A stretch of DNA of 64,000 bases, taken from the NCBI GenBank assembly GCA_002328025.1, contig DCVE01000014.1:69882-133881 (forward strand), in the 5' to 3' direction. Origin of the DNA: Patescibacteria group bacterium UBA2196 (GTDB lineage: Bacteria; Patescibacteriota; Patescibacteriia; UBA2196). The notes beneath the pieces were generated by a model, which worked only from the letters and a program-made list of their open reading frames with translations, was not told where the DNA came from and searched no databases. The position numbers and the translations under genes were made by a program. This document shows positions 192 through 40,048 of the stretch, piece after piece (the first letter of the stretch is position 1; each line of letters starts with the position of its first letter).

Positions 192-220
192 TTGACATTT
201 ATCTAGTTTACGCTTATAAT
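192..220 (+). promoter_or_regulatory. sigma70-like promoter for rplY (TTGACA-N17-TATAAT)
   Basis: TTGACA at 192-197, 17-nt spacer, TATAAT at 215-220, about 28 nt upstream of the rplY start. Confidence 0.5.
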
Positions 221-3964: not shown

Positions 3965-5001
3965 GTCTGGATTTTTTTTAATTCTTCAATTATTTTTTCT
4001 AAATTTCCATCCATAATGGTGGCGATATTGTGCCAGCTTTGCTTAATTCGATGATCAGTGACGCGATCTTGGGGAAAGTTATAGGTACGGATTTTTTCAC
4101 TTCTGTCACCACTACCGACCTGCGTTTTTCTTTCTGCGGATAAGGTTTGATGTTTTTTTTCTTCGTCTGCTGCCAAAATACGGGCGCGCAAAACTTGCAT
4201 GGCTTTATCTTTATTTTGTCCTTGTGAACGTTCGTCTTGACACGAGACAACAATACCGGTTGGAATATGTGTAATGCGCACCGCCGAATGGGTTGTATTG
4301 ACGCTCTGTCCGCCATGTCCGCCGGCGCAAAAAGTATCAATTTTTAAGTCTTTGATTTCAATTTTAACATCCACCTCCTCAGCTTCAGGCATGACCGCGA
4401 CCGTGACAGCTGAAGTATGAATGCGACCGGCTTTTTCTGTTTCCGGCACTCTTTGTACACGGTGAGTGCCACTTTCATATTTTAACCAACCATAAACATT
4501 TTGGCCCTTAACTTCAAATATAACTTCTTTAAAACCGCCAATGCAAATGCGATTGGCGGTTATGATGTCGGTTTTCCAATTCATTTTTTCTGCAAATCTG
4601 GCATACAGGCGAAACATTTCCGCCGCAAACAAAGCTGATTCATCACCACCAGTCCCAGCTCTAATTTCCATAATGACATCTTTTTTGTCGAGTGGATTTT
4701 TAGGATTTAAACACTCTTCAATTGTTTGGCGCAGGCTTTCATTTTCAAGTTCAAATTTTGAGTTTTCTTTTATGGCCAGATCTTTTAATTCAAGTTCATC
4801 ACTATTAATGATGTGGTTGTTTTCTTCTATACTAATAGTATTTTTTTCCAGTTGATTAATTTTTTCTATCACTTCTTTCATCTCAGAAAGTTTTTTTATG
4901 GTGTTAATATAGTTTTTTTGATCAGCTAAAACAGCCAGGTCATTAATGGCTCGTTCTAAATCTGCATATGTATCTCGTATTGGTTGATAGGGAGACAGCA
5001 T
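3961..5001 (-). CDS. prfA: peptide chain release factor 1
   Basis: GGQ motif ([11 protein letters not shown]) and RF1-type tripeptide region [18 protein letters not shown]. Sits upstream of prmC. Confidence 0.85.
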
Positions 5002-5100
5002 AATTTCTAATCTTCAATTTTTAATTTCTAAACAATGTATTAATTATCAAATTTATAAATTTGAAACATTAAAAATTAGGAATTGAGAATTAAATAAAAA
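5002..5100. repeat. ~100-bp AT-rich intergenic repeat, copy A (copy B at 15055-15155)
   Basis: Aligning both plus strands by eye gives about 85% identity over ~95 nt. Shared blocks aatttYtaatYttcaattt...aaacaatgtNttaattat...ttgaaacattaaaaatta. Copy A contains a perfect 16-bp palindrome CAAATTTATAAATTTG (5048-5063). Confidence 0.55.
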
Positions 5101-5149
5101 CCCTGCTTGATATTAATTATAGCAGAATTTTTTGGATAAATTAAAACAG

Positions 5150-5464
5150 TTATTTTTTGGTAGCCTTTTTTGTTGTTTTAATTACTTCGACATCTTTGGC
5201 TTTCTTGGCTTTTAAAGCCTGTCTTTTAGCTGTTTTACCTTTACTTTTACCGACCAGACTTTGAGTTTTAACAGATTTTTCTTTGAATTTTTCTACCCGT
5301 CTGGCTGTGTCAATTAATTTTTGATGACCAGTAAAAAAAGGATGACAAGCCGAACACAGCTCAACTTTAATTTCTTTTTGGGTGGAGCCAGTTTTAAAAG
5401 TATTGCCGCAAGCACAGACCACTACGGCGTCTTTATAATAGGTTGGATGAATGTCTTTTTTCAT
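5150..5464 (-). CDS. rpmE: 50S ribosomal protein L31 (Zn-ribbon type) with Lys-rich C-terminal extension
   Basis: [10 protein letters not shown]...VVCACGNTF...[12 protein letters not shown] matches the L31 CxxC...CxxC fold. Has an extra basic tail. Confidence 0.85.
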
Positions 5465-5665
5465 AAATAAAATAATTTTAACTATTTTTAATTATCATTA
5501 GTTTAACATGCTTTTTTAATCTTGACAAGAGGTGACTTTAAATGTTAGTGTTAATAAGTTAAAAAATTATTAATAAATCACACACTTAAGTTTTTTATCT
5601 TGGTTGTCCTGCCAAAATTAACCCAGATAATTTTTAGGCTTGAGTGGCGGAAAAAGGACACAATT

Positions 5666-9040: not shown

Positions 9041-9156
9041 AATTAAATTCGCAGCCCCAATAATTTTGTTGGTAGAAGTTATAATTTTTGGCCAATTGGT
9101 TAGCTAAACTTGAGCCGTTATTTTGTTTCTAATCAAAATCATAAAATTTAACCTTT

Positions 9157-9507
9157 TTATTTTTTAAGGTAATAAATCGCTAAACCGGTCACAGTTCCCA
9201 CGCCATCCACTAGCCAGTCTAAAATACTGACCGAACGATTGGGAACAAAAGATTGATGCCATTCATCAGACAGAGCAAACACAAGGCAAAAGGTCAGCAC
9301 CACGAGCATTTTTTTAAAACTGTATTTTCCACCGGCTGCCATCAATAAATAACTTAAAATTAAAAACTCAAAAAAGTGCGCGATTGAGCCGTAGTCAAAC
9401 GCTTCTTTGGGATACTGGTCGCCAGGAATGGTGGACAGTAAAAAAATTATCAGCATCCAAATTATGGCCGGTAGAATTTTGGTAATGAATTTTCCATTTT
9501 TAAACAT
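9157..9507 (-). CDS. VanZ-like family membrane protein
   Basis: Four TM helices and the VanZ signature ...DEWHQSFVPNRS...DWLVDGVG. Confidence 0.65.
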   Translation of the reverse strand: MFKNGKFITKILPAIIWMLIIFLLSTIPGDQYPKEAFDYGSIAHFFEFLILSYLLMAAGGKYSFKKMLVVLTFCLVFALSDEWHQSFVPNRSVSILDWLVDGVGTVTGLAIYYLKK

Positions 9508-10494: not shown

Positions 10495-12993
10495 ATGCTA
10501 AAAGAAGGACCATACAACCCACAAGACCATGAAGAAAAAATTTACCAACTTTGGGAGCAAGGTGGTTTTTTTACACCAAGCATTGATCAAGATAAAAAAT
10601 CTTATAGTATTGTTTTGCCGCCACCTAACGTGACTGGTACTTTGCATATTGGACACGCCTTGATGTTGGCCATTGAAGATATTTTAATTCGTTATCACCG
10701 CATGCAAGGTCTTAGAACTTTGTGGTTACCAGGCACAGATCACGCGGCCATTGCCACCCAAAGCAAAGTGGAAAAAAAGATTTATAAAGAAGAGGGTAAG
10801 TCTCGTTATGATTTAGGTCGCGAAGATTTTTTAAAAAGAGTAGAAAAGTTTGCCCAGGAAAGTCATGATACAATTGTGCAACAAACTAAAAGAATGGGCG
10901 CGTCTTTGGATTGGAGCCGAGAGGCTTATACTTTGGATGAAGCGCGCAACAGAGCGGTGAATATGGCTTTTAAAACCATGCATGATGATGGATTAATTTA
11001 TCAGGGCGACAGAGTAATTAATTGGGATCCTAAAGGACAGACTACAATTTCGGATGATGAAGTTGTGCATGTAGAAAGAGAAGCTGCGCTTTACACTTTT
11101 AAATATAGCTCAGATTTTCCTTTTGCTATTGCCACCACTCGTCCAGAAACAAAATTAGGTGATACAGCAGTGGCAGTGCACCCCAATGATGAAAGGTATA
11201 AAAAATTTATTGGCCAAGAATATGATTTAGAATTTTGCAAAGAAAAATTGCATATAAAAATTATTGCTGATGAATCTGTTGATCCAGAATTTGGTACAGG
11301 AGCTCTTGGGGTTACACCAGCTCATAGTCATATTGATTGGGAAATTGCCCAAAGACATAATTTATCTTTAAAACAAATAATTGATGAGAAGACACGGATA
11401 ATTTCTGTTAATGAAAATCTGCAGGGCAAAAAAGTTGAAGAAGCCAGATCCATTATTGTTGAGTGGTTAAAAGAAAATAATCTTTTAATAAAAGAAGAAC
11501 CAATAAAACAAAATGTGGCCACCGCTGAAAGAACAGGAGCTTTAGTTGAACCATTGCCCAAAAAGCAATGGTTTGTGGCCGTGAATAAAGAATTTGTGAT
11601 GAAAGAATCTAAATTAAAAAATATAAAAACCGGTGAAAAGGTGACTTTAAAAAAGTTAATGCGTTCGGTGGTGGAATCTAGTGAAATAAAAATAATGCCC
11701 GAGCAGTTTGAAAAAATATATTTTCACTGGATTGATAATTTGCGTGACTGGTGTATATCAAGGCAAATTTGGTATGGACACCGGGTACCGGTTTACTATA
11801 AAGATCAAGAAATTTGTGTTGGTGCAGAAGCGCCGGTGGGCGACGGTTGGGAACAAGACCCTGACACTTTGGATACTTGGTTTTCTTCTGGCCTATGGAC
11901 TTTTTCCACTTTGGGCTGGCCGATTAATGAAGTGCGTCATTTTCACGAATCATTGGTTGATTTAATTATTAAAGGTGAAAAAGTAAAAACATATCGCTTT
12001 GATGATGAAAGTTACTGTGTTGGTCAGGTTTGGCAATTAGAAAATTCTCAAACACAAGAAAAGTTTGGCTATGCCAAAATCACTAAAGTCAGCCAAGCTA
12101 GATTTGGAGATATTGGATATGGCGCTGAAGGACATGAAAAATACGCTTCCCAAGAAGATATGTATGAAACTTTTAAAAGATACTACCCTGAGAAAGAAAT
12201 TACGGCCGATTCACTCACCTGGATTTATGAATTTGAGTATCAACAAAAGTCTGATTTAGAAACTTTTCACCCCACTGATGTTTTGGAAACCGGTTATGAT
12301 ATTTTATTTTTCTGGGTGGCCAGGATGATTTTGATGACAACGTATTTATTGGGTGACATTCCTTTTAAAACAGTTTATTTGCATGGCTTAATTCGCGATG
12401 CGGAAAGACAAAAAATGAGTAAATCCAAAGACAATGCCGTGGACCCGCTTAGTGTAATTGATGAGCAGGGCGCGGATGCTTTGCGTATGGCCATGGTTTT
12501 TGGCACTGGTCAAGGCAATGATGTGGTTATGACACCAGATAAAATTGTGGCGCAGAAAAAATTTGCCAATAAAATTTGGAATGCCAGCAAGTTTATTTTA
12601 AACAATTTAGGCCAAGAATTTAAACCCGCAGTGGTGAACATTGATCTGTTTAAAAATAGTGATGATAAAGACATTTTAGAAAAATTAGCAGCCACCGTTA
12701 AACAAACTGCCATCAATCTTGATAATTTTATGTTTCATGAGGCAGCTCAGGATATTTATCAATTTTTCTGGCATGATTTGTGTGATGTTTATTTAGAGTC
12801 GGTCAAATCCAGATTGTATGACGAAGAAGGGGAGAGCCAAGAAAATGCGCGCCAAGTTTTATACCACGTTTTGTTAAACAGTTTAAAACTTTTGCATCCA
12901 TTTATGCCGTTTATAACAGAAGTGGTTTATCAAGAATTACCTTATAAAAATAAACAAAGCTTGATTATTGAAGATTGGCCAGTGAATGTATAA
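10495..12993 (+). CDS. valS: valyl-tRNA synthetase carrying an inserted ASCH-like domain
   Basis: PPPNVTGTLHIGHAL (ValRS-type HIGH) and KMSKSKDN. A ~110-aa insertion lies between the conserved ...WFSSGLWTFSTLGWP and FHPTDVLETGYDILFFWVARM blocks. Confidence 0.9.
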   Translation: MLKEGPYNPQDHEEKIYQLWEQGGFFTPSIDQDKKSYSIVLPPPNVTGTLHIGHALMLAIEDILIRYHRMQGLRTLWLPGTDHAAIATQSKVEKKIYKEEGKSRYDLGREDFLKRVEKFAQESHDTIVQQTKRMGASLDWSREAYTLDEARNRAVNMAFKTMHDDGLIYQGDRVINWDPKGQTTISDDEVVHVEREAALYTFKYSSDFPFAIATTRPETKLGDTAVAVHPNDERYKKFIGQEYDLEFCKEKLHIKIIADESVDPEFGTGALGVTPAHSHIDWEIAQRHNLSLKQIIDEKTRIISVNENLQGKKVEEARSIIVEWLKENNLLIKEEPIKQNVATAERTGALVEPLPKKQWFVAVNKEFVMKESKLKNIKTGEKVTLKKLMRSVVESSEIKIMPEQFEKIYFHWIDNLRDWCISRQIWYGHRVPVYYKDQEICVGAEAPVGDGWEQDPDTLDTWFSSGLWTFSTLGWPINEVRHFHESLVDLIIKGEKVKTYRFDDESYCVGQVWQLENSQTQEKFGYAKITKVSQARFGDIGYGAEGHEKYASQEDMYETFKRYYPEKEITADSLTWIYEFEYQQKSDLETFHPTDVLETGYDILFFWVARMILMTTYLLGDIPFKTVYLHGLIRDAERQKMSKSKDNAVDPLSVIDEQGADALRMAMVFGTGQGNDVVMTPDKIVAQKKFANKIWNASKFILNNLGQEFKPAVVNIDLFKNSDDKDILEKLAATVKQTAINLDNFMFHEAAQDIYQFFWHDLCDVYLESVKSRLYDEEGESQENARQVLYHVLLNSLKLLHPFMPFITEVVYQELPYKNKQSLIIEDWPVNV

Positions 12994-13036
12994 AAAATAA
13001 AAATCCCCGCCCTGAAATAAAACTCAGAAACGGGGA
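12991..13036 (-). terminator. possible terminator for the GC-island gene
   Basis: On the minus strand an imperfect hairpin ccccg[ttt]ctga...tcag[gg]cgggg is followed by TTTTTATTTTTT. Confidence 0.3.
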
Positions 13037-13054
13037 CAAAGCAGGAGCAAATCC

Positions 13055-13597
13055 TCAGCCCTTGCGTCCTGCAATGTTAAGGACGAGGTTTCTGCGCCGC
13101 GATCCCGGTGGCAGAAAAAACTCCAGTACCATCATGCAGAACTCCCAGATCCAGTATTTCTTCTGGTACTGGTCTGGGCTGGAAAAGGTAAAAGTGTACC
13201 AGCCGTCTTTGTTTTCGGCTTTCCACTTTCTCTTTAGACGCAAGACCAAATGTGGCTTTAACGCCACAACGGTTAATTTTTTGAAGCCTCTTTCGCGGCA
13301 TATGCGGTTGGCCTCCGCAATTTCGTCCGCCGAGTCACGGGCGGCCATGTCCGCCCCCACTATAATTTTCACGTCGTAGTCCAGATTCATCATCCGCAGG
13401 GCCTCTTTTTTGTATATTTGGGCCTCAGACCGTGTGTCAGACGGGACAGTCCGCCCCACGGTCATGATAAGCGGACAGTAGCATTTCGTCCGGGCTTTTT
13501 TAATGCCCCAACGAAGCACATCAAGGCCTCTTGCTGGGACAATTGAGTCCTTTGGGCAATAGGTGTGCACCATAACCGCCTCGGTTACTCTCTTCAT
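13055..13597 (-). CDS. DUF218 (YdcF/SanA/ElyC-like) domain protein encoded on a GC-rich island
   Basis: The blocks PLIMTVGRT..., SEAQIYKKEALRMMNLDYDVKII and GADMAARDSADEIAEANRI...LTVVALKPHLVLRLK follow the order of E. coli YdcF motifs. Canonical SD GGAGGAtcacATG. Local GC is much higher than the flanks. Confidence 0.45.
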   Translation of the reverse strand: MKRVTEAVMVHTYCPKDSIVPARGLDVLRWGIKKARTKCYCPLIMTVGRTVPSDTRSEAQIYKKEALRMMNLDYDVKIIVGADMAARDSADEIAEANRICRERGFKKLTVVALKPHLVLRLKRKWKAENKDGWYTFTFSSPDQYQKKYWIWEFCMMVLEFFLPPGSRRRNLVLNIAGRKG

Positions 13598-13747
13598 GTG
13601 ATCCTCCCGGGCTTTTTTGCCTGATTTTCAAAATTCAATGTTCACAATTTATAACGCGATTATAGCTTATTATTATTATTATGTCAATGTTTAATAGGTT
13701 TTTTTTGCTATAATTAGCTTAATTAATCTTTTAGCCTGAAAATATAA

Positions 13748-13774
13748 TTAGCACTCTTGACACGAGAGTGCTAA
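13748..13774 (+). promoter_or_regulatory. CIRCE operator (HrcA binding site) overlapping the hrcA promoter
   Basis: TTAGCACTC-ttgacacga-GAGTGCTAA is a perfect 9-N9-9 CIRCE inverted repeat. The spacer carries TTGACA (13757-13762) and TATAAT follows 18 nt later (13781-13786). Confidence 0.85.
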
Positions 13775-13881
13775 TTTTTGTATAATTAAAACAATAATCT
13801 AAATCTGTATATAAATGGTTCTAAAAATATAAACCTGGTATATAAAATTTAGTTATATTTATTGCTAATATTAGCCAAAAT

Positions 13882-14556
13882 ATGTTATCGCGGCAGGATG
13901 AATTATTAAAAAGTATTGTTGAAGAATATCTAAAAACCGCTCAACCTGTGGGGTCCAAATTAATTGTGGATAAGTATTTAACTGATTTTTCTTCAGCCAC
14001 AGTTAGAAATGATATGGTTGAATTGGAGGAATTGGGCTTAATCTGTCAGCCGCACACTTCAGCCGGCCGTATCCCAACCGCCGAGGGTTATAAAAAATTT
14101 GTGGAAAATTATGTTGATTTTAACCAAGCTTTAAACATCAAAGAACAAGAAAAAATATTTACTTTGCTTTCTGCTAAAGAAGGTGAAGATAAAATTAAAC
14201 TCTTGGCCAAAATTTTGGCGGAAAAATCGGGTTTAGCGGTTTTTGTGGGTTTTAGCGCCAGTGATGTTTATTACACGGGTTTATCAAACATTTTTTCACA
14301 AAGCGAATTTAAAGATTTAAATTTGATTTATCACATTTCAACAGTGGTGGATCACCTTGATGAAGTTCTGCAGAAAATTTATAATAATAAGGGCGCGCCA
14401 GTTGAAATAAAAATTGGACATGAAAATCCCTTTGCGCGCGATTGCTCAACGGTTTTTGCTAAAATAAAAAATATTTTATTAGGTATTGTGGGACCCATGC
14501 GTATGGATTATCAAAAAAATGTCGAACTAATTAATTTTACTAGAAATATAATATAA
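13882..14556 (+). CDS. hrcA: heat-inducible transcription repressor HrcA (short form)
   Basis: N-terminal wHTH LLKSIVEEYLKTAQPVGSKLIVDKY...SSATVRNDMVELEELGL. CIRCE upstream and grpE-dnaK-dnaJ downstream. Confidence 0.85.
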   Translation: MLSRQDELLKSIVEEYLKTAQPVGSKLIVDKYLTDFSSATVRNDMVELEELGLICQPHTSAGRIPTAEGYKKFVENYVDFNQALNIKEQEKIFTLLSAKEGEDKIKLLAKILAEKSGLAVFVGFSASDVYYTGLSNIFSQSEFKDLNLIYHISTVVDHLDEVLQKIYNNKGAPVEIKIGHENPFARDCSTVFAKIKNILLGIVGPMRMDYQKNVELINFTRNII

Positions 14557-36331: not shown

Positions 36332-37300
36332 ATGACTTGGCTAATAGTTGCTTTGGTGGCTTATTTTTTAAATGCCATCGCCATGGTTATTGATAAGACT
36401 TTGTTAAAAAAAGGCGGGATTGAAAGTCCGGTTGTCTATACTTTTTATATTGCCGCGCTAGGCTCAGTGTTAATGCTGTTTGTTATTCCTTTTGGTTTTA
36501 GCGTGCCTGCGCCTTTCGTGGTATTAGTTTCTTTAATTGCCGGCGCGGTTTTTGTGTGGGCGCTTATTTTACAGTTTAAAGCTTTAGCTAAGGATGATGC
36601 TACGCGTGTCATTTCTTCTATCGGTGGTCTGGTGCCAGTGTTTGTTTTTATCTTAGCTTGGTTTGTTTTGGAAGAAAATTTTTCTAGGTATGAATTTTGT
36701 GGTGGCATTCTTTTGGTCGCCGGTTCATTTCTAATCTCTTTGGATTTTCACGAACGTGGTGGTGCCTGGACCTGGTTAAAGAAAAAAATGGGCTATACAA
36801 AATTTGCTCTCCCACACATTCGTCAGACTTTATGGCTAGCTTTGCCTTCCGCATTGCTTTATGCCATTTCCAGCATCTTGACGAAATTTGTTTATAACAA
36901 TACAACTTTTTTGAATGGTTTTATTTGGACGCGGCTAGGTTCTTTATTGGCAGTTTTATCACTTTTGTTAATTGCTAAAAATCGTCACGACATCAAAAGC
37001 AGCTTGCAGAAAGGTAAGCAAAACAATAGCAATCAAAAAAATCAACGTTTTCGTTTTCTATTCGGTCAAGCCTGTGGTGGATCTTCGGCGCTTCTGCAAC
37101 AGTATGCCATTTTTTTGGGCTCGGTAGTTTTAGTCAATGCTTTGCAAGGCACTCAGTATGCTTTTGTTTTTGTGTTAGTTATTATCTTAACTTTATTCGC
37201 GCCAAAATTGCTAAAAGAAAAAATTACCCAAGAAATTGTTATCCAAAAAATTATTTCTATTATTTTAATTGCAGTTGGTTTGTATTTAGTGACAGTCTAG
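36332..37300 (+). CDS. polytopic membrane protein, DMT/EamA-like
   Basis: About 10 predicted TM helices in two halves. No catalytic motifs. The family call is weak. Confidence 0.35.
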   Translation: MTWLIVALVAYFLNAIAMVIDKTLLKKGGIESPVVYTFYIAALGSVLMLFVIPFGFSVPAPFVVLVSLIAGAVFVWALILQFKALAKDDATRVISSIGGLVPVFVFILAWFVLEENFSRYEFCGGILLVAGSFLISLDFHERGGAWTWLKKKMGYTKFALPHIRQTLWLALPSALLYAISSILTKFVYNNTTFLNGFIWTRLGSLLAVLSLLLIAKNRHDIKSSLQKGKQNNSNQKNQRFRFLFGQACGGSSALLQQYAIFLGSVVLVNALQGTQYAFVFVLVIILTLFAPKLLKEKITQEIVIQKIISIILIAVGLYLVTV

Positions 37301-37312
37301 GTTTTATTTCTT

Positions 37313-38044
37313 ATGAACTATCAAAATCCAAAGACCTCAATTATTATTAGAACTAGAAATGAAGATAATACTTTTGAAGAAGTTTTGTCTTGTATAGAAA
37401 AACAAACGTATCAAGATTTTGAAATTATTGTTGTAGATGATAATTCAACGGATAAAACACAGCAAATTGCTAAAGAACACGACTGTAAAATTGTGCTGAT
37501 ACCAGAAGGAAAATTTTCACACCCATACTCATGCAACTTGGGCGCTCAAAATGCACAAGGTAAATATCTGGTGTATCTTAATGGTCACGCACTGCCAATT
37601 TCTGACACCTGGTTGGCTGATGGTTTAAAAAATTTTAAAGATAAAAAAATAGCTGGCATCTATGCTTTTGTTATAGCCAGAAAAAATAGTACTTTAGCTG
37701 ATAAGATACTTTATGATGTTGTGGGTAGAACCATTGGTGCATTAAAATTTAAAGCCAATAAAAAAATGACTGGTGTTCTAGGCACAACCAACGCCATTAT
37801 TAGGAAAGATTTATGGAATCAATATCATTTCAATGAAAAATTTAATAGCGGTTGGGGCGGTGAAGACACAAATTGGGCCCGATATTTTATGGAACGTGGA
37901 TATTGTATAGTTCACGAACCAAAGTTTAGAGTTAGGCATTCACACAATTTAAGCTGGAAAGATTTTTTTTGGCAATTAAAAAATTGGCTAAAAATGGCTT
38001 ATCCGGTTCTTGGTATTCCTGAGAAACAAAGAAAGAATGTATAA
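37313..38044 (+). CDS. family 2 glycosyltransferase
   Basis: ...IIIRTRNE...FEIIVVDDNSTDKT (GT-A fold DxD region). Confidence 0.7.
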   Translation: MNYQNPKTSIIIRTRNEDNTFEEVLSCIEKQTYQDFEIIVVDDNSTDKTQQIAKEHDCKIVLIPEGKFSHPYSCNLGAQNAQGKYLVYLNGHALPISDTWLADGLKNFKDKKIAGIYAFVIARKNSTLADKILYDVVGRTIGALKFKANKKMTGVLGTTNAIIRKDLWNQYHFNEKFNSGWGGEDTNWARYFMERGYCIVHEPKFRVRHSHNLSWKDFFWQLKNWLKMAYPVLGIPEKQRKNV

Positions 38045-39049: not shown

Positions 39050-39079
39050 TTAAATAGATAAAATAATTACATAATACGG

Positions 39080-39120
39080 GACAAAAATAAAACACCCCCG
39101 AAAAGATTGATGGGGGTGTC
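39080..39120 (-). terminator. terminator for the minus-strand GC-island gene
   Basis: Stem acaccccc / gggggtgt (8 bp). On the minus strand it is followed by TTTTATTTTTGT. Confidence 0.5.
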
Positions 39121-39156
39121 GTTGTTTTATGGTTAGAACGGAACGGGTAGTTGTAG

Positions 39157-39552
39157 CTACATCATTGGGTTTGCCCAGCCAGTGATTTCAACCTTCCAGC
39201 CGTGTAGTTCTATAACGACTGGAAACTTCTTTTGAAAACCCTCGGGCGTGGTGTAAGCAAAGTAATTGCTATACACCTCCAATATCACCAGACTCTCTGT
39301 GAGCCGGTGGACGTTGGCATAGTCACGGGCCACCAGATGCCCGTTTTTCAAAATATTCACCATACCGCTGCCGTCACAACAGGCGGTGACTGGCACAGGG
39401 ACCTCCATGGTGATGTACCACCCTATATTAACGTGGAGACTGAGCTCATTGAACCCAGCCTTAGTAATCGGGGTGGTGGCAGTGGTTTGGGCATTGGGGG
39501 CGGCCACGAATAGAGCCAGCAGCAGAACACACAACAATGCGAATTTTTTCAT
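39157..39552 (-). CDS. small secreted protein of unknown function on a GC-rich island next to tRNA-Pro
   Basis: Signal peptide MKKFALLCVLLLALFVAAPNAQ. 131 aa with vicinal Cys (TACCDG). Canonical SD GGAGGatgtcATG. Local GC is far above the flanks. Confidence 0.45.
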   Translation of the reverse strand: MKKFALLCVLLLALFVAAPNAQTTATTPITKAGFNELSLHVNIGWYITMEVPVPVTACCDGSGMVNILKNGHLVARDYANVHRLTESLVILEVYSNYFAYTTPEGFQKKFPVVIELHGWKVEITGWANPMM

Positions 39553-39766
39553 GACATCCTCCGAACAAATAGATTATGCAACGATTCCACGAATTATCTT
39601 TAGAATAACAGAGAGAGAGATTTGTCAAGAGTAGTTGGTAATGTGCACACACAATTGAGATTTTGTGTAAAATTAGATAAATTTTGGATATTGGTGATGT
39701 TTTAAAAACACATAAAACTAGTTTGTTTTTTTTAATAAATTAAGGTAAAATTTAAAGGTAAATTAA

Positions 39767-39840
39767 CGGGATATAGCGCAGTTGGCTAGCGCGCGTCGTT
39801 CGGGACGACGAGGTCGCCGGTTCGAGTCCGGCTATCCCGA
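39767..39840 (+). tRNA. tRNA-Pro (anticodon CGG)
   Basis: Manual cloverleaf: acceptor CGGGATA/TATCCCG, D-arm GCGC-AGTTGGCTA-GCGC, anticodon arm CGTCG-TTCGGGA-CGACG (CGG at 34-36), variable loop AGGTC, T-arm GCCGG-TTCGAGT-CCGGC, discriminator A. 74 nt, no encoded CCA. Confidence 0.85.
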
Positions 39841-39910: not shown

Positions 39911-40048
39911 ATGGAAGATGAACAAAAAAAATGCACAGCCTGTGGTACCATAATTACTGACGAAACAAAATGCACCTGTAGTGAAAACTTGTGCGCTGGT
40001 TGTTGCACTTGTGACCCAGATTGCGCTTGTGGTTGTCAGGATAAATAG
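39911..40048 (+). CDS. 45-aa cysteine-rich (metallothionein-like) small protein
   Basis: MEDEQKKCTACGTIITDETKCTCSENLCAGCCTCDPDCACGCQDK: 11 Cys in 45 aa as CxxC, CxC, CxxCCxC and CxCxC clusters. Ends 7 nt before rarA. Not in the ORF track (<60 aa). Overlaps an antisense track ORF. Confidence 0.4.
   Translation: MEDEQKKCTACGTIITDETKCTCSENLCAGCCTCDPDCACGCQDK

Follow-up and report, generated by a model that had tools for sequence, protein, structure and literature searches.

A GC-rich DUF218/YdcF-fold gene with its own expression signals between valS and hrcA of an AT-rich Patescibacterium

The DNA analysed here, referred to as the window, is a stretch of 64 kb (64,000 nucleotides) of contig DCVE01000014.1 from Patescibacteria group bacterium UBA2196. 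Its host is an AT-rich Patescibacterium of the candidate phyla radiation (CPR), and the nearest named relatives of its HrcA protein come from Falkowbacteria and other Patescibacteria metagenome-assembled genomes (MAGs). Between valS and the gene of the heat-shock repressor, hrcA, which is preceded by the operator known as the controlling inverted repeat of chaperone expression (CIRCE), the window carries a minus-strand gene with a base composition and a translation start unlike those of its neighbours, which raises the question of where this gene came from, how it reached this spacer and what its product may do. The segment carrying it is compositionally alien and has no counterpart at the syntenic position in the closest relative, and taken as a whole the locus is probably best explained as a horizontally acquired foreign cassette of a DUF218/YdcF-fold gene inserted at valS-hrcA.

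Composition, start codon and expression signals

Windowed GC reached 0.513 (51.3%) in the 600 nt from position 13001, higher than anywhere else in the 64 kb and about 4.3 standard deviations above its mean of 0.355 (35.5%; standard deviation 0.037). The sole open reading frame (ORF) of this GC-rich stretch lies on the minus strand at 13055-13597, begins with the ATG at 13595-13597 and encodes 180 amino acids (aa). Measured against 57 native genes of the window, it deviates in overall GC (0.516; z = +4.4), in GC at third codon positions (GC3; 0.630 versus a native mean of 0.290 with a standard deviation of 0.047; z = +7.2) and in the codon-adaptation index trained on the same genes (0.430 versus 0.684 +/- 0.033; z = -7.6), so that both composition and codon usage fall outside the norm of the host, as they do in acquired islets. 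An initial annotation, made without database searches, had described about 600 bp of GC-rich DNA right after valS, coding on the minus strand for a protein of 180 aa and lying directly upstream of the CIRCE/hrcA promoter. Stretch, gene and position were all recovered, CIRCE following immediately to the right at 13748-13774, and the proposed calculations of windowed GC and codon adaptation both returned extreme outliers, the composition being far from uniform.

Public gene calls start this gene at an internal methionine, Met9 (P0001, 172 aa), the codons from Met1 to Met9 spanning 13571-13597 on the minus strand. The 180-aa reading from Met1 is preferred, since homology with the closest homologue, P0002, begins upstream of Met9 and since a strong Shine-Dalgarno (SD) sequence precedes Met1; P0002, too, starts a few residues before the motif MVHTYCPK, behind an AGGAGG of its own.

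The SD sequence in question, GGGAGGA at 13602-13608 (minus strand), is placed 4 nt upstream of the ATG, the start region reading GGGAGGA-tcac-ATG. Computed against the canonical anti-SD, its predicted duplex energy of -10.3 kcal/mol is the strongest of 59 genes, with an all-gene median of +0.6; a second GC-rich gene on the minus strand (39157-39552) reaches -9.5. These two are also the only ones of the 59 with an AGGAG/GGAGG core upstream, and none of the 57 native window genes has a five-base SD core. The earlier statements that the gene bears a canonical SD and that the native genes have essentially none were thus both borne out.

Further upstream, about 60 nt from the start codon, a perfect sigma-70 consensus promoter (TTGACA-17-TATAAT, a 12/12 match) is found at 13659-13687 on the minus strand, lying within the inserted segment and pointing away from the divergent hrcA promoter. 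Exact promoters of the form TTGACA-N16-18-TATAAT occur three times in the 64 kb, versus 0.14 expected by chance, namely at 192-220 (plus strand), at 13659-13687 in front of the island gene and at 13757-13786 (plus strand) in front of the CIRCE-controlled hrcA. At its other end the gene is followed by an intrinsic terminator (12994-13037, minus strand), which consists of a hairpin at 13003-13037 and a U-run reaching the valS stop, with UUUUUAUUUUUU following the hairpin; its minimum free energy is -21.1 kcal/mol (z = -3.7), and 0 of 200 shuffles were equally stable. Equipped with promoter, SD, ORF and terminator of its own, the cassette is predicted to be expressed independently of its neighbours. 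The same layout is seen at the locus of P0002 (L001), where TTGACA-17-TATATT, AGGAGG and a terminator at -17 kcal/mol accompany the gene on an AT-rich contig whose other genes are devoid of SD sequences.

The valS-hrcA junction and the origin of the segment

The closest relative, L024 (isolate AMR_MDS_2570), displays the same order of gap, VanZ, SIMPL, valS, hrcA, grpE, hsp20 and dnaK, its proteins being 89-95% identical to those of the window (HrcA 92%, DnaK 95%) and its nucleotides about 85-90% (~87%). In this genome valS and hrcA are 163 bp apart, versus 888 bp in the window, and only 28 nt with no gene between them separate the valS stop from CIRCE; it is a relative with the two genes adjacent and without the insert, such as the initial annotation had suggested looking for. 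According to blastn and MAFFT, nucleotide homology of 85-89% extends up to the valS stop, ends at 12982-12993 and resumes at 13745 with 96%. Delimited by these alignments and the GC profile, the segment missing from L024 covers about 750 bp (12994-13744) and is composed of a GC-rich core (~13004-13620) and an AT-rich part with leader and promoter (13621 to ~13744). The left flank is formed by valS (10495-12993, plus strand), the last ~240 bp of which are at the baseline identity of 85-89% to L024, and the right flank by the CIRCE operator (TTAGCACTC-N9-GAGTGCTAA, 13748-13774) overlapping the hrcA promoter TTGACA-18-TATAAT (13757-13786); this plus-strand region (13748-13786) is intact and 96% identical to L024. 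Among close relatives, L024 is the one in which the orthologous site was compared, and it lacks the gene there; in addition, no protein related to that of the island is encoded at any of 20 hrcA loci taken from related genomes.

We propose that, in a host without SD sequences, the 28-nt spacer separating the valS stop from the CIRCE/hrcA promoter received a foreign single-gene cassette, and that this took place in the window lineage once it had diverged from that of L024. The later insertion is argued from the absence of the island in L024, not from the GC of the island. Since neither repeats nor mobility genes are present, illegitimate recombination would be the route, and the donor would have had a GC content of about 45-55% and SD-led initiation. 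Contigs with relatives of the protein have 41-48% GC and their family genes 45-52%, which is consistent with a donor of higher GC. Of the claim of a recent horizontal acquisition from such a donor, the acquisition is supported by the alien composition, the SD and the absence from L024, while "recent" holds only in a relative sense, as later than the separation from a species ~87% identical.

Single-gene acquired islets of Patescibacteria and other reduced genomes resemble the window cassette in their atypical GC and codon usage, their absence from sister genomes and their insertion into spacers. Unlike them, the cassette comes without integrase, tRNA target or repeats and, unlike them again, it retains an SD of donor type in an SD-less genome along with a perfect sigma-70 promoter of host type.

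Several observations speak against an acquisition by insertion. No close donor was found, the best homologue being 58% identical, and tblastn against phage and plasmid collections returned none; no mobility gene or integrase was detected, nor any phage, plasmid, IMG/VR, PHROG or PADLOC match; and the search for terminal repeats and target-site duplications at the junctions gave only short AT-rich chance matches. Neither an identifiable donor nor mobility machinery in the form of integrase, repeats, tRNA target or phage and plasmid relatives accompanies the cassette. Moreover, the valS-hrcA junction is covered by one syntenic relative, insertion being preferred to deletion by parsimony and composition, and a second GC-rich island of the window shows that a GC3 of ~0.5-0.6 can last across the same split. 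A pattern scan of IMG/VR and of the GTDB representative genomes likewise revealed no family member.

This second island, already met above as the only other gene with an SD core, occupies 39157-39552 on the minus strand, with flanks at ~39075-39640, between a gene for 332 aa and tRNA-Pro(CGG). It has a GC of 0.505 and a GC3 of 0.62, its start region reads GGAGGA-tgtc-ATG (cGGAGGAtgtcATG), it is followed by a hairpin terminator, and its product of 131 aa has a signal peptide and no known domain. Among 5.8 billion proteins a single homologue was found, 61% identical and located at the same syntenic site in the relative L032, where the copy has a GC3 of 0.53 and the flanking proteins are ~90% identical to those of the window. 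Because this homologue holds the same site, island 2 is older than the species split, and, being shared with a relative, it demonstrates that high GC alone does not date a transfer.

The persistence of island 2 lends some weight to the idea that the valS-hrcA cassette, too, was gained before the window and L024 lineages separated and was later cleanly deleted in L024, in which case it would be foreign, though neither lineage-specific nor recent; coverage of the junction by one relative only points the same way. Such a deletion, however, would have had to take out exactly the promoter, the gene and the terminator and leave valS and CIRCE untouched, and L024 shows no remnant in the 28 nt from the valS stop to CIRCE. 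Furthermore, with a GC3 of 0.63 the island gene does not fall below island 2 of the window (0.62) and lies above the L032 copy (0.53). We therefore consider an early gain followed by loss unlikely and keep to insertion after the split.

The neighbouring valS gene deserves attention in its own right, being a mosaic relative to L024: identity is ~90% over ~22 residues at its start and ~100 at its end, while its body is 55-65% identical at the amino acid level and 60-73% at the nucleotide level. The window ValS also contains an insert of ~100 residues (~487-586; ~11953-12252), annotated as ASCH, which is absent from the 744-aa ValS of L024. That recombination has acted at the locus, as the divergence of the valS body (~10560-12750; 60-73% versus the baseline of 85-90%) indicates, opens the way to a different history, in which the cassette would have come by homologous recombination from a Patescibacteria lineage already carrying it after valS, within the exchange that replaced the valS body. 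The nearest homologue, P0002, is in its favour as well, forming likewise a cassette of promoter, SD and terminator in an AT-rich, SD-poor contig. Yet the context of P0002 is a different one, its gene adjoining that of a ribonucleotide reductase, and the last ~240 bp of valS at baseline identity separate the divergent valS body from the island, making two tracts of them. A single recombination tract including the valS body was rejected on this ground, and the whole scenario appears improbable compared with an insertion of the cassette by itself.

An abrupt shift of GC inside a metagenome-assembled contig may also arouse suspicion of an assembly chimera or of contamination from a higher-GC organism of the metagenome. 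The insert is, however, bounded by host sequence on both sides in one contig, its promoter region is AT-rich and host-like, and the junctions are 100% identical at the nucleotide level in four independent assemblies, one being a 281-kb ENA contig and the other three Logan assemblies of other runs; an artefact was rejected on the strength of these four and is very improbable.

The encoded protein and its family

The full-length homologue P0002 is 58% identical to the window protein. In an exhaustive HMMER search, 43 of 1.84 billion cluster representatives belonged to the family, 38 with E<=1e-10; its members are tied to the window protein at E values of 1e-10 to 1e-43 and identities of 25-58%, and a metagenome scan added three more loci. 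To judge from these matches, the family is real but very rare. When compared with the Pfam model of DUF218 (PF02698; gathering score 27.6 bits), 29 of 39 family members matched at E<=1, the best at 4.5e-8; P0004 (28.6 bits) and P0045 (29.4 bits), both members checked, passed the cut-off, and P0002, the nearest relative, scored E 3.8e-4. Based on these matches of its relatives and on its predicted fold, and not on a direct match of its own, the product is assigned to a rare, divergent DUF218 clade. The initial naming as DUF218/YdcF-like consequently stands at the level of the family and the fold, and falls as regards a direct Pfam match of the protein itself.

Built from a 39-sequence alignment, the AlphaFold2 (AF2) model reached a predicted local distance difference test score (pLDDT) of 92.9 and a predicted template modelling score (pTM) of 0.88. 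In a Foldseek search of BFVD, a collection of predicted viral structures, ranks 1, 2, 3 and 6 were taken by annotated YdcF/DUF218 proteins, the best being an Edafosvirus YdcF-family protein (E 1.4e-5; TM 0.71/0.73; root-mean-square deviation 2.9 A; 170 columns). The top PDB matches were weak ones of the HUP class with an adenine-nucleotide alpha-hydrolase-like fold (argininosuccinate synthase, LarE, USP and PPAT), a class to which YdcF is reported to belong (PMC12176290). The model thus shows a predicted Rossmann-like fold of YdcF type.

The near-invariant residues of the family include T89, for which the window protein and P0002 have serine, together with H116 and E152. They occur in the same order as SanA T125, H149 and E182, at spacings of 27/36 versus 24/33, and the local motifs have counterparts in the two (family/SanA: RDT/RT, PHLxR/FHCER and WEF/REF). 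Alanine substitution of these SanA residues abolishes SanA function (PMC12176290). S89, H116 and E152 may hence be regarded as a putative catalytic set, mapped onto the SanA triad by motif and not by significant alignment.

Against the membership in DUF218 and the mapping onto SanA stand several results. The window protein itself had no match to PF02698 even at E<=1 and none in NCBIfam, and the high-confidence model found nothing in the PDB below E 1e-3. The YdcF structure 3CA8 was the top PDB match (E 7.6e-3) of an earlier low-confidence model only and was not among the top 50 of the high-confidence one. An hhalign comparison of the family with four E. coli DUF218 proteins gave a weak E of 0.018 with only the His motif aligned, that with SanA alone an E of 0.23, too weak to count. 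Searches of PHROGs and PADLOC with the window protein were also negative, and the 39-member profile retrieved nothing below E 0.2 from the PDB sequences.

Compared with YdcF and other small anchor-less DUF218 proteins (PF02698; 3CA8; giant-virus and cyanophage forms), the window protein is alike in its length of ~170-180 aa, in lacking an anchor, in its predicted three-layer Rossmann-like fold and, as far as the motifs indicate, in the conserved Thr/Ser...His...Glu positions. It differs from them by an identity of at most ~15%, by missing the Pfam model and by the C-terminal motif LPPGSxRR...GRKG and the N-terminal motif HTYxPK, which are specific to its own clade.

GC-rich islands of AT-rich genomes are often formed by RNA genes, and with stops being rare in GC-rich DNA and the protein lacking a direct Pfam or NCBIfam match, a structured RNA or a chance ORF may be thought of; this explanation has next to nothing left to it, as Rfam (gathering thresholds over the whole window, a permissive E-value over 12800-13900) gave nothing credible, the best sub-threshold hit being an archaeal snoRNA with 20.7 bits versus a cut-off of 45, and the full-length homologues with conserved motifs and the confident model in a known fold refute it. 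ARAGORN detected only tRNA-Pro at 39767-39840 in the window and no tRNA in the GC-rich stretch.

An N-terminal transmembrane helix of ~20 residues is present in 33 of 39 family members. The window protein, like P0002 and some further members, lacks it, its N-terminus not being hydrophobic (best 19-residue hydropathy 0.45). In the anchored members, lysine and arginine residues (K+R) average 0.15 ahead of the helix, as opposed to 2.06 over the 15 residues behind it, and because they follow the helix, the positive-inside rule predicts a domain facing the cytoplasm. Such an orientation of the anchored forms would accord with a cytoplasmic place of work for those without an anchor.

With SanA and ElyC, E. 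coli inner membrane proteins that balance the synthesis of peptidoglycan and enterobacterial common antigen (ECA), the window protein shares the DUF218 domain, and its S89, H116 and E152 are putative counterparts, by motif, of the SanA triad. Their domain is periplasmic and anchored, whereas the window protein has no anchor and does not show the outward-facing domain of this subtype, and the charge pattern of the anchored clade members is the opposite one, as expected of a domain facing the cytoplasm. The Patescibacterium host is not known to have an outer membrane or ECA.

Among the gene contexts retrieved for relatives of the window protein, clusters for glycan assembly recur, a further parallel to SanA and ElyC. 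In L026 and L027 the family genes sit between genes for a Wzx-type flippase, Wzy_C, a glycosyltransferase, a methyltransferase and a carbamoyltransferase, and in L029 and L030 they are flanked by genes for GT2, GT4, a YfhO-like protein, an NDP-sugar pyrophosphorylase, an epimerase/dehydratase and a C-methyltransferase. Housekeeping genes surround the family gene of L028, and that of L001 (P0002) is the one adjoining the ribonucleotide reductase gene. This recurring context is in keeping with the known envelope roles of ElyC and SanA. The L029 contig, which carries an anchored family member, also contains two adjacent minus-strand genes (3970-4629 and 4663-5472) with a GC of 0.57-0.58 versus 0.48 and AGGAGG/GGGAGGA motifs unlike their neighbours, so that the pattern of an SD-bearing GC-rich islet recurs there.

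Given that anchored clade members are situated in polysaccharide-biosynthesis clusters and are predicted to face the cytoplasm, the window protein may act on a cytoplasmic-side precursor of envelope glycan or peptidoglycan assembly, as a cytoplasmic enzyme that would use a Ser/Thr-His-Glu set equivalent to the essential SanA residues. Two points count against this role: the topology argument is a rule of thumb, and no glycan-biosynthesis context exists in the 64-kb window, leaving function to analogy. Of the envelope and peptidoglycan link claimed at first, the part drawn from the family and from the context of homologues persists, and nothing at this locus adds to it. A broader proposal, which we put forward very tentatively and consider rather doubtful, is that the clade represents an undescribed, very rare, cytoplasm-facing DUF218 branch of glycan assembly, the anchor-less form of which would circulate as an autonomous cassette of promoter, SD and terminator and would have entered two or more AT-rich, SD-less genomes independently of each other, namely the one studied here and the CPR-like-looking L001.

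Further loci of the window and meaning of the probable gene gain

Apart from the two islands, the window differs from its relatives at other places. The EamA-family gene at 36332-37300 is only 60% identical to its L032 counterpart, with neighbours at ~90%, and the gene for 243 aa at 37313-38044 has no tblastn match in L032, where a methyltransferase-domain gene for 211 aa is called at the matching place; 36332-38044 is another locally replaced or fast-evolving segment. Near the VanZ-like gene, L024 is ~411 bp longer than the window (9151-9300; pairwise alignment gap). Just downstream of tRNA-Pro, a plus-strand ORF of 45 codons (39911-40048) encodes the very cysteine-rich peptide MEDEQKKCTACGTIITDETKCTCSENLCAGCCTCDPDCACGCQDK, which looks metallothionein-like or like a RiPP (a peptide made by the ribosome and modified after its translation), as far as its sequence can be read.

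Altogether, as an instance of horizontal gene transfer the locus is clear-cut and unexceptional, and it poses no challenge to current understanding. It provides a well-bounded gene gain in a streamlined Patescibacteria genome, in which the foreign gene keeps the SD and the codon usage of its donor in a host having neither, behind a perfect promoter of host type. Noteworthy are the retention of an SD by a gene whose host otherwise does without, the rarity of the clade, whose orientation is probably cytoplasmic, and a cassette layout that recurs in a second AT-rich genome. To DUF218, the protein adds a rare, anchor-less and probably cytoplasmic branch. The envelope phenotypes of SanA and ElyC are clear, and for finding the substrate of DUF218 a small, soluble member with a confident model could be well suited. 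Should, as an equally doubtful extension of the proposal of a circulating cassette, the donor have been the bacterium on which this presumed episymbiont lives, both GC-rich cassettes with an SD would be molecular markers of the pairing of symbiont and host.

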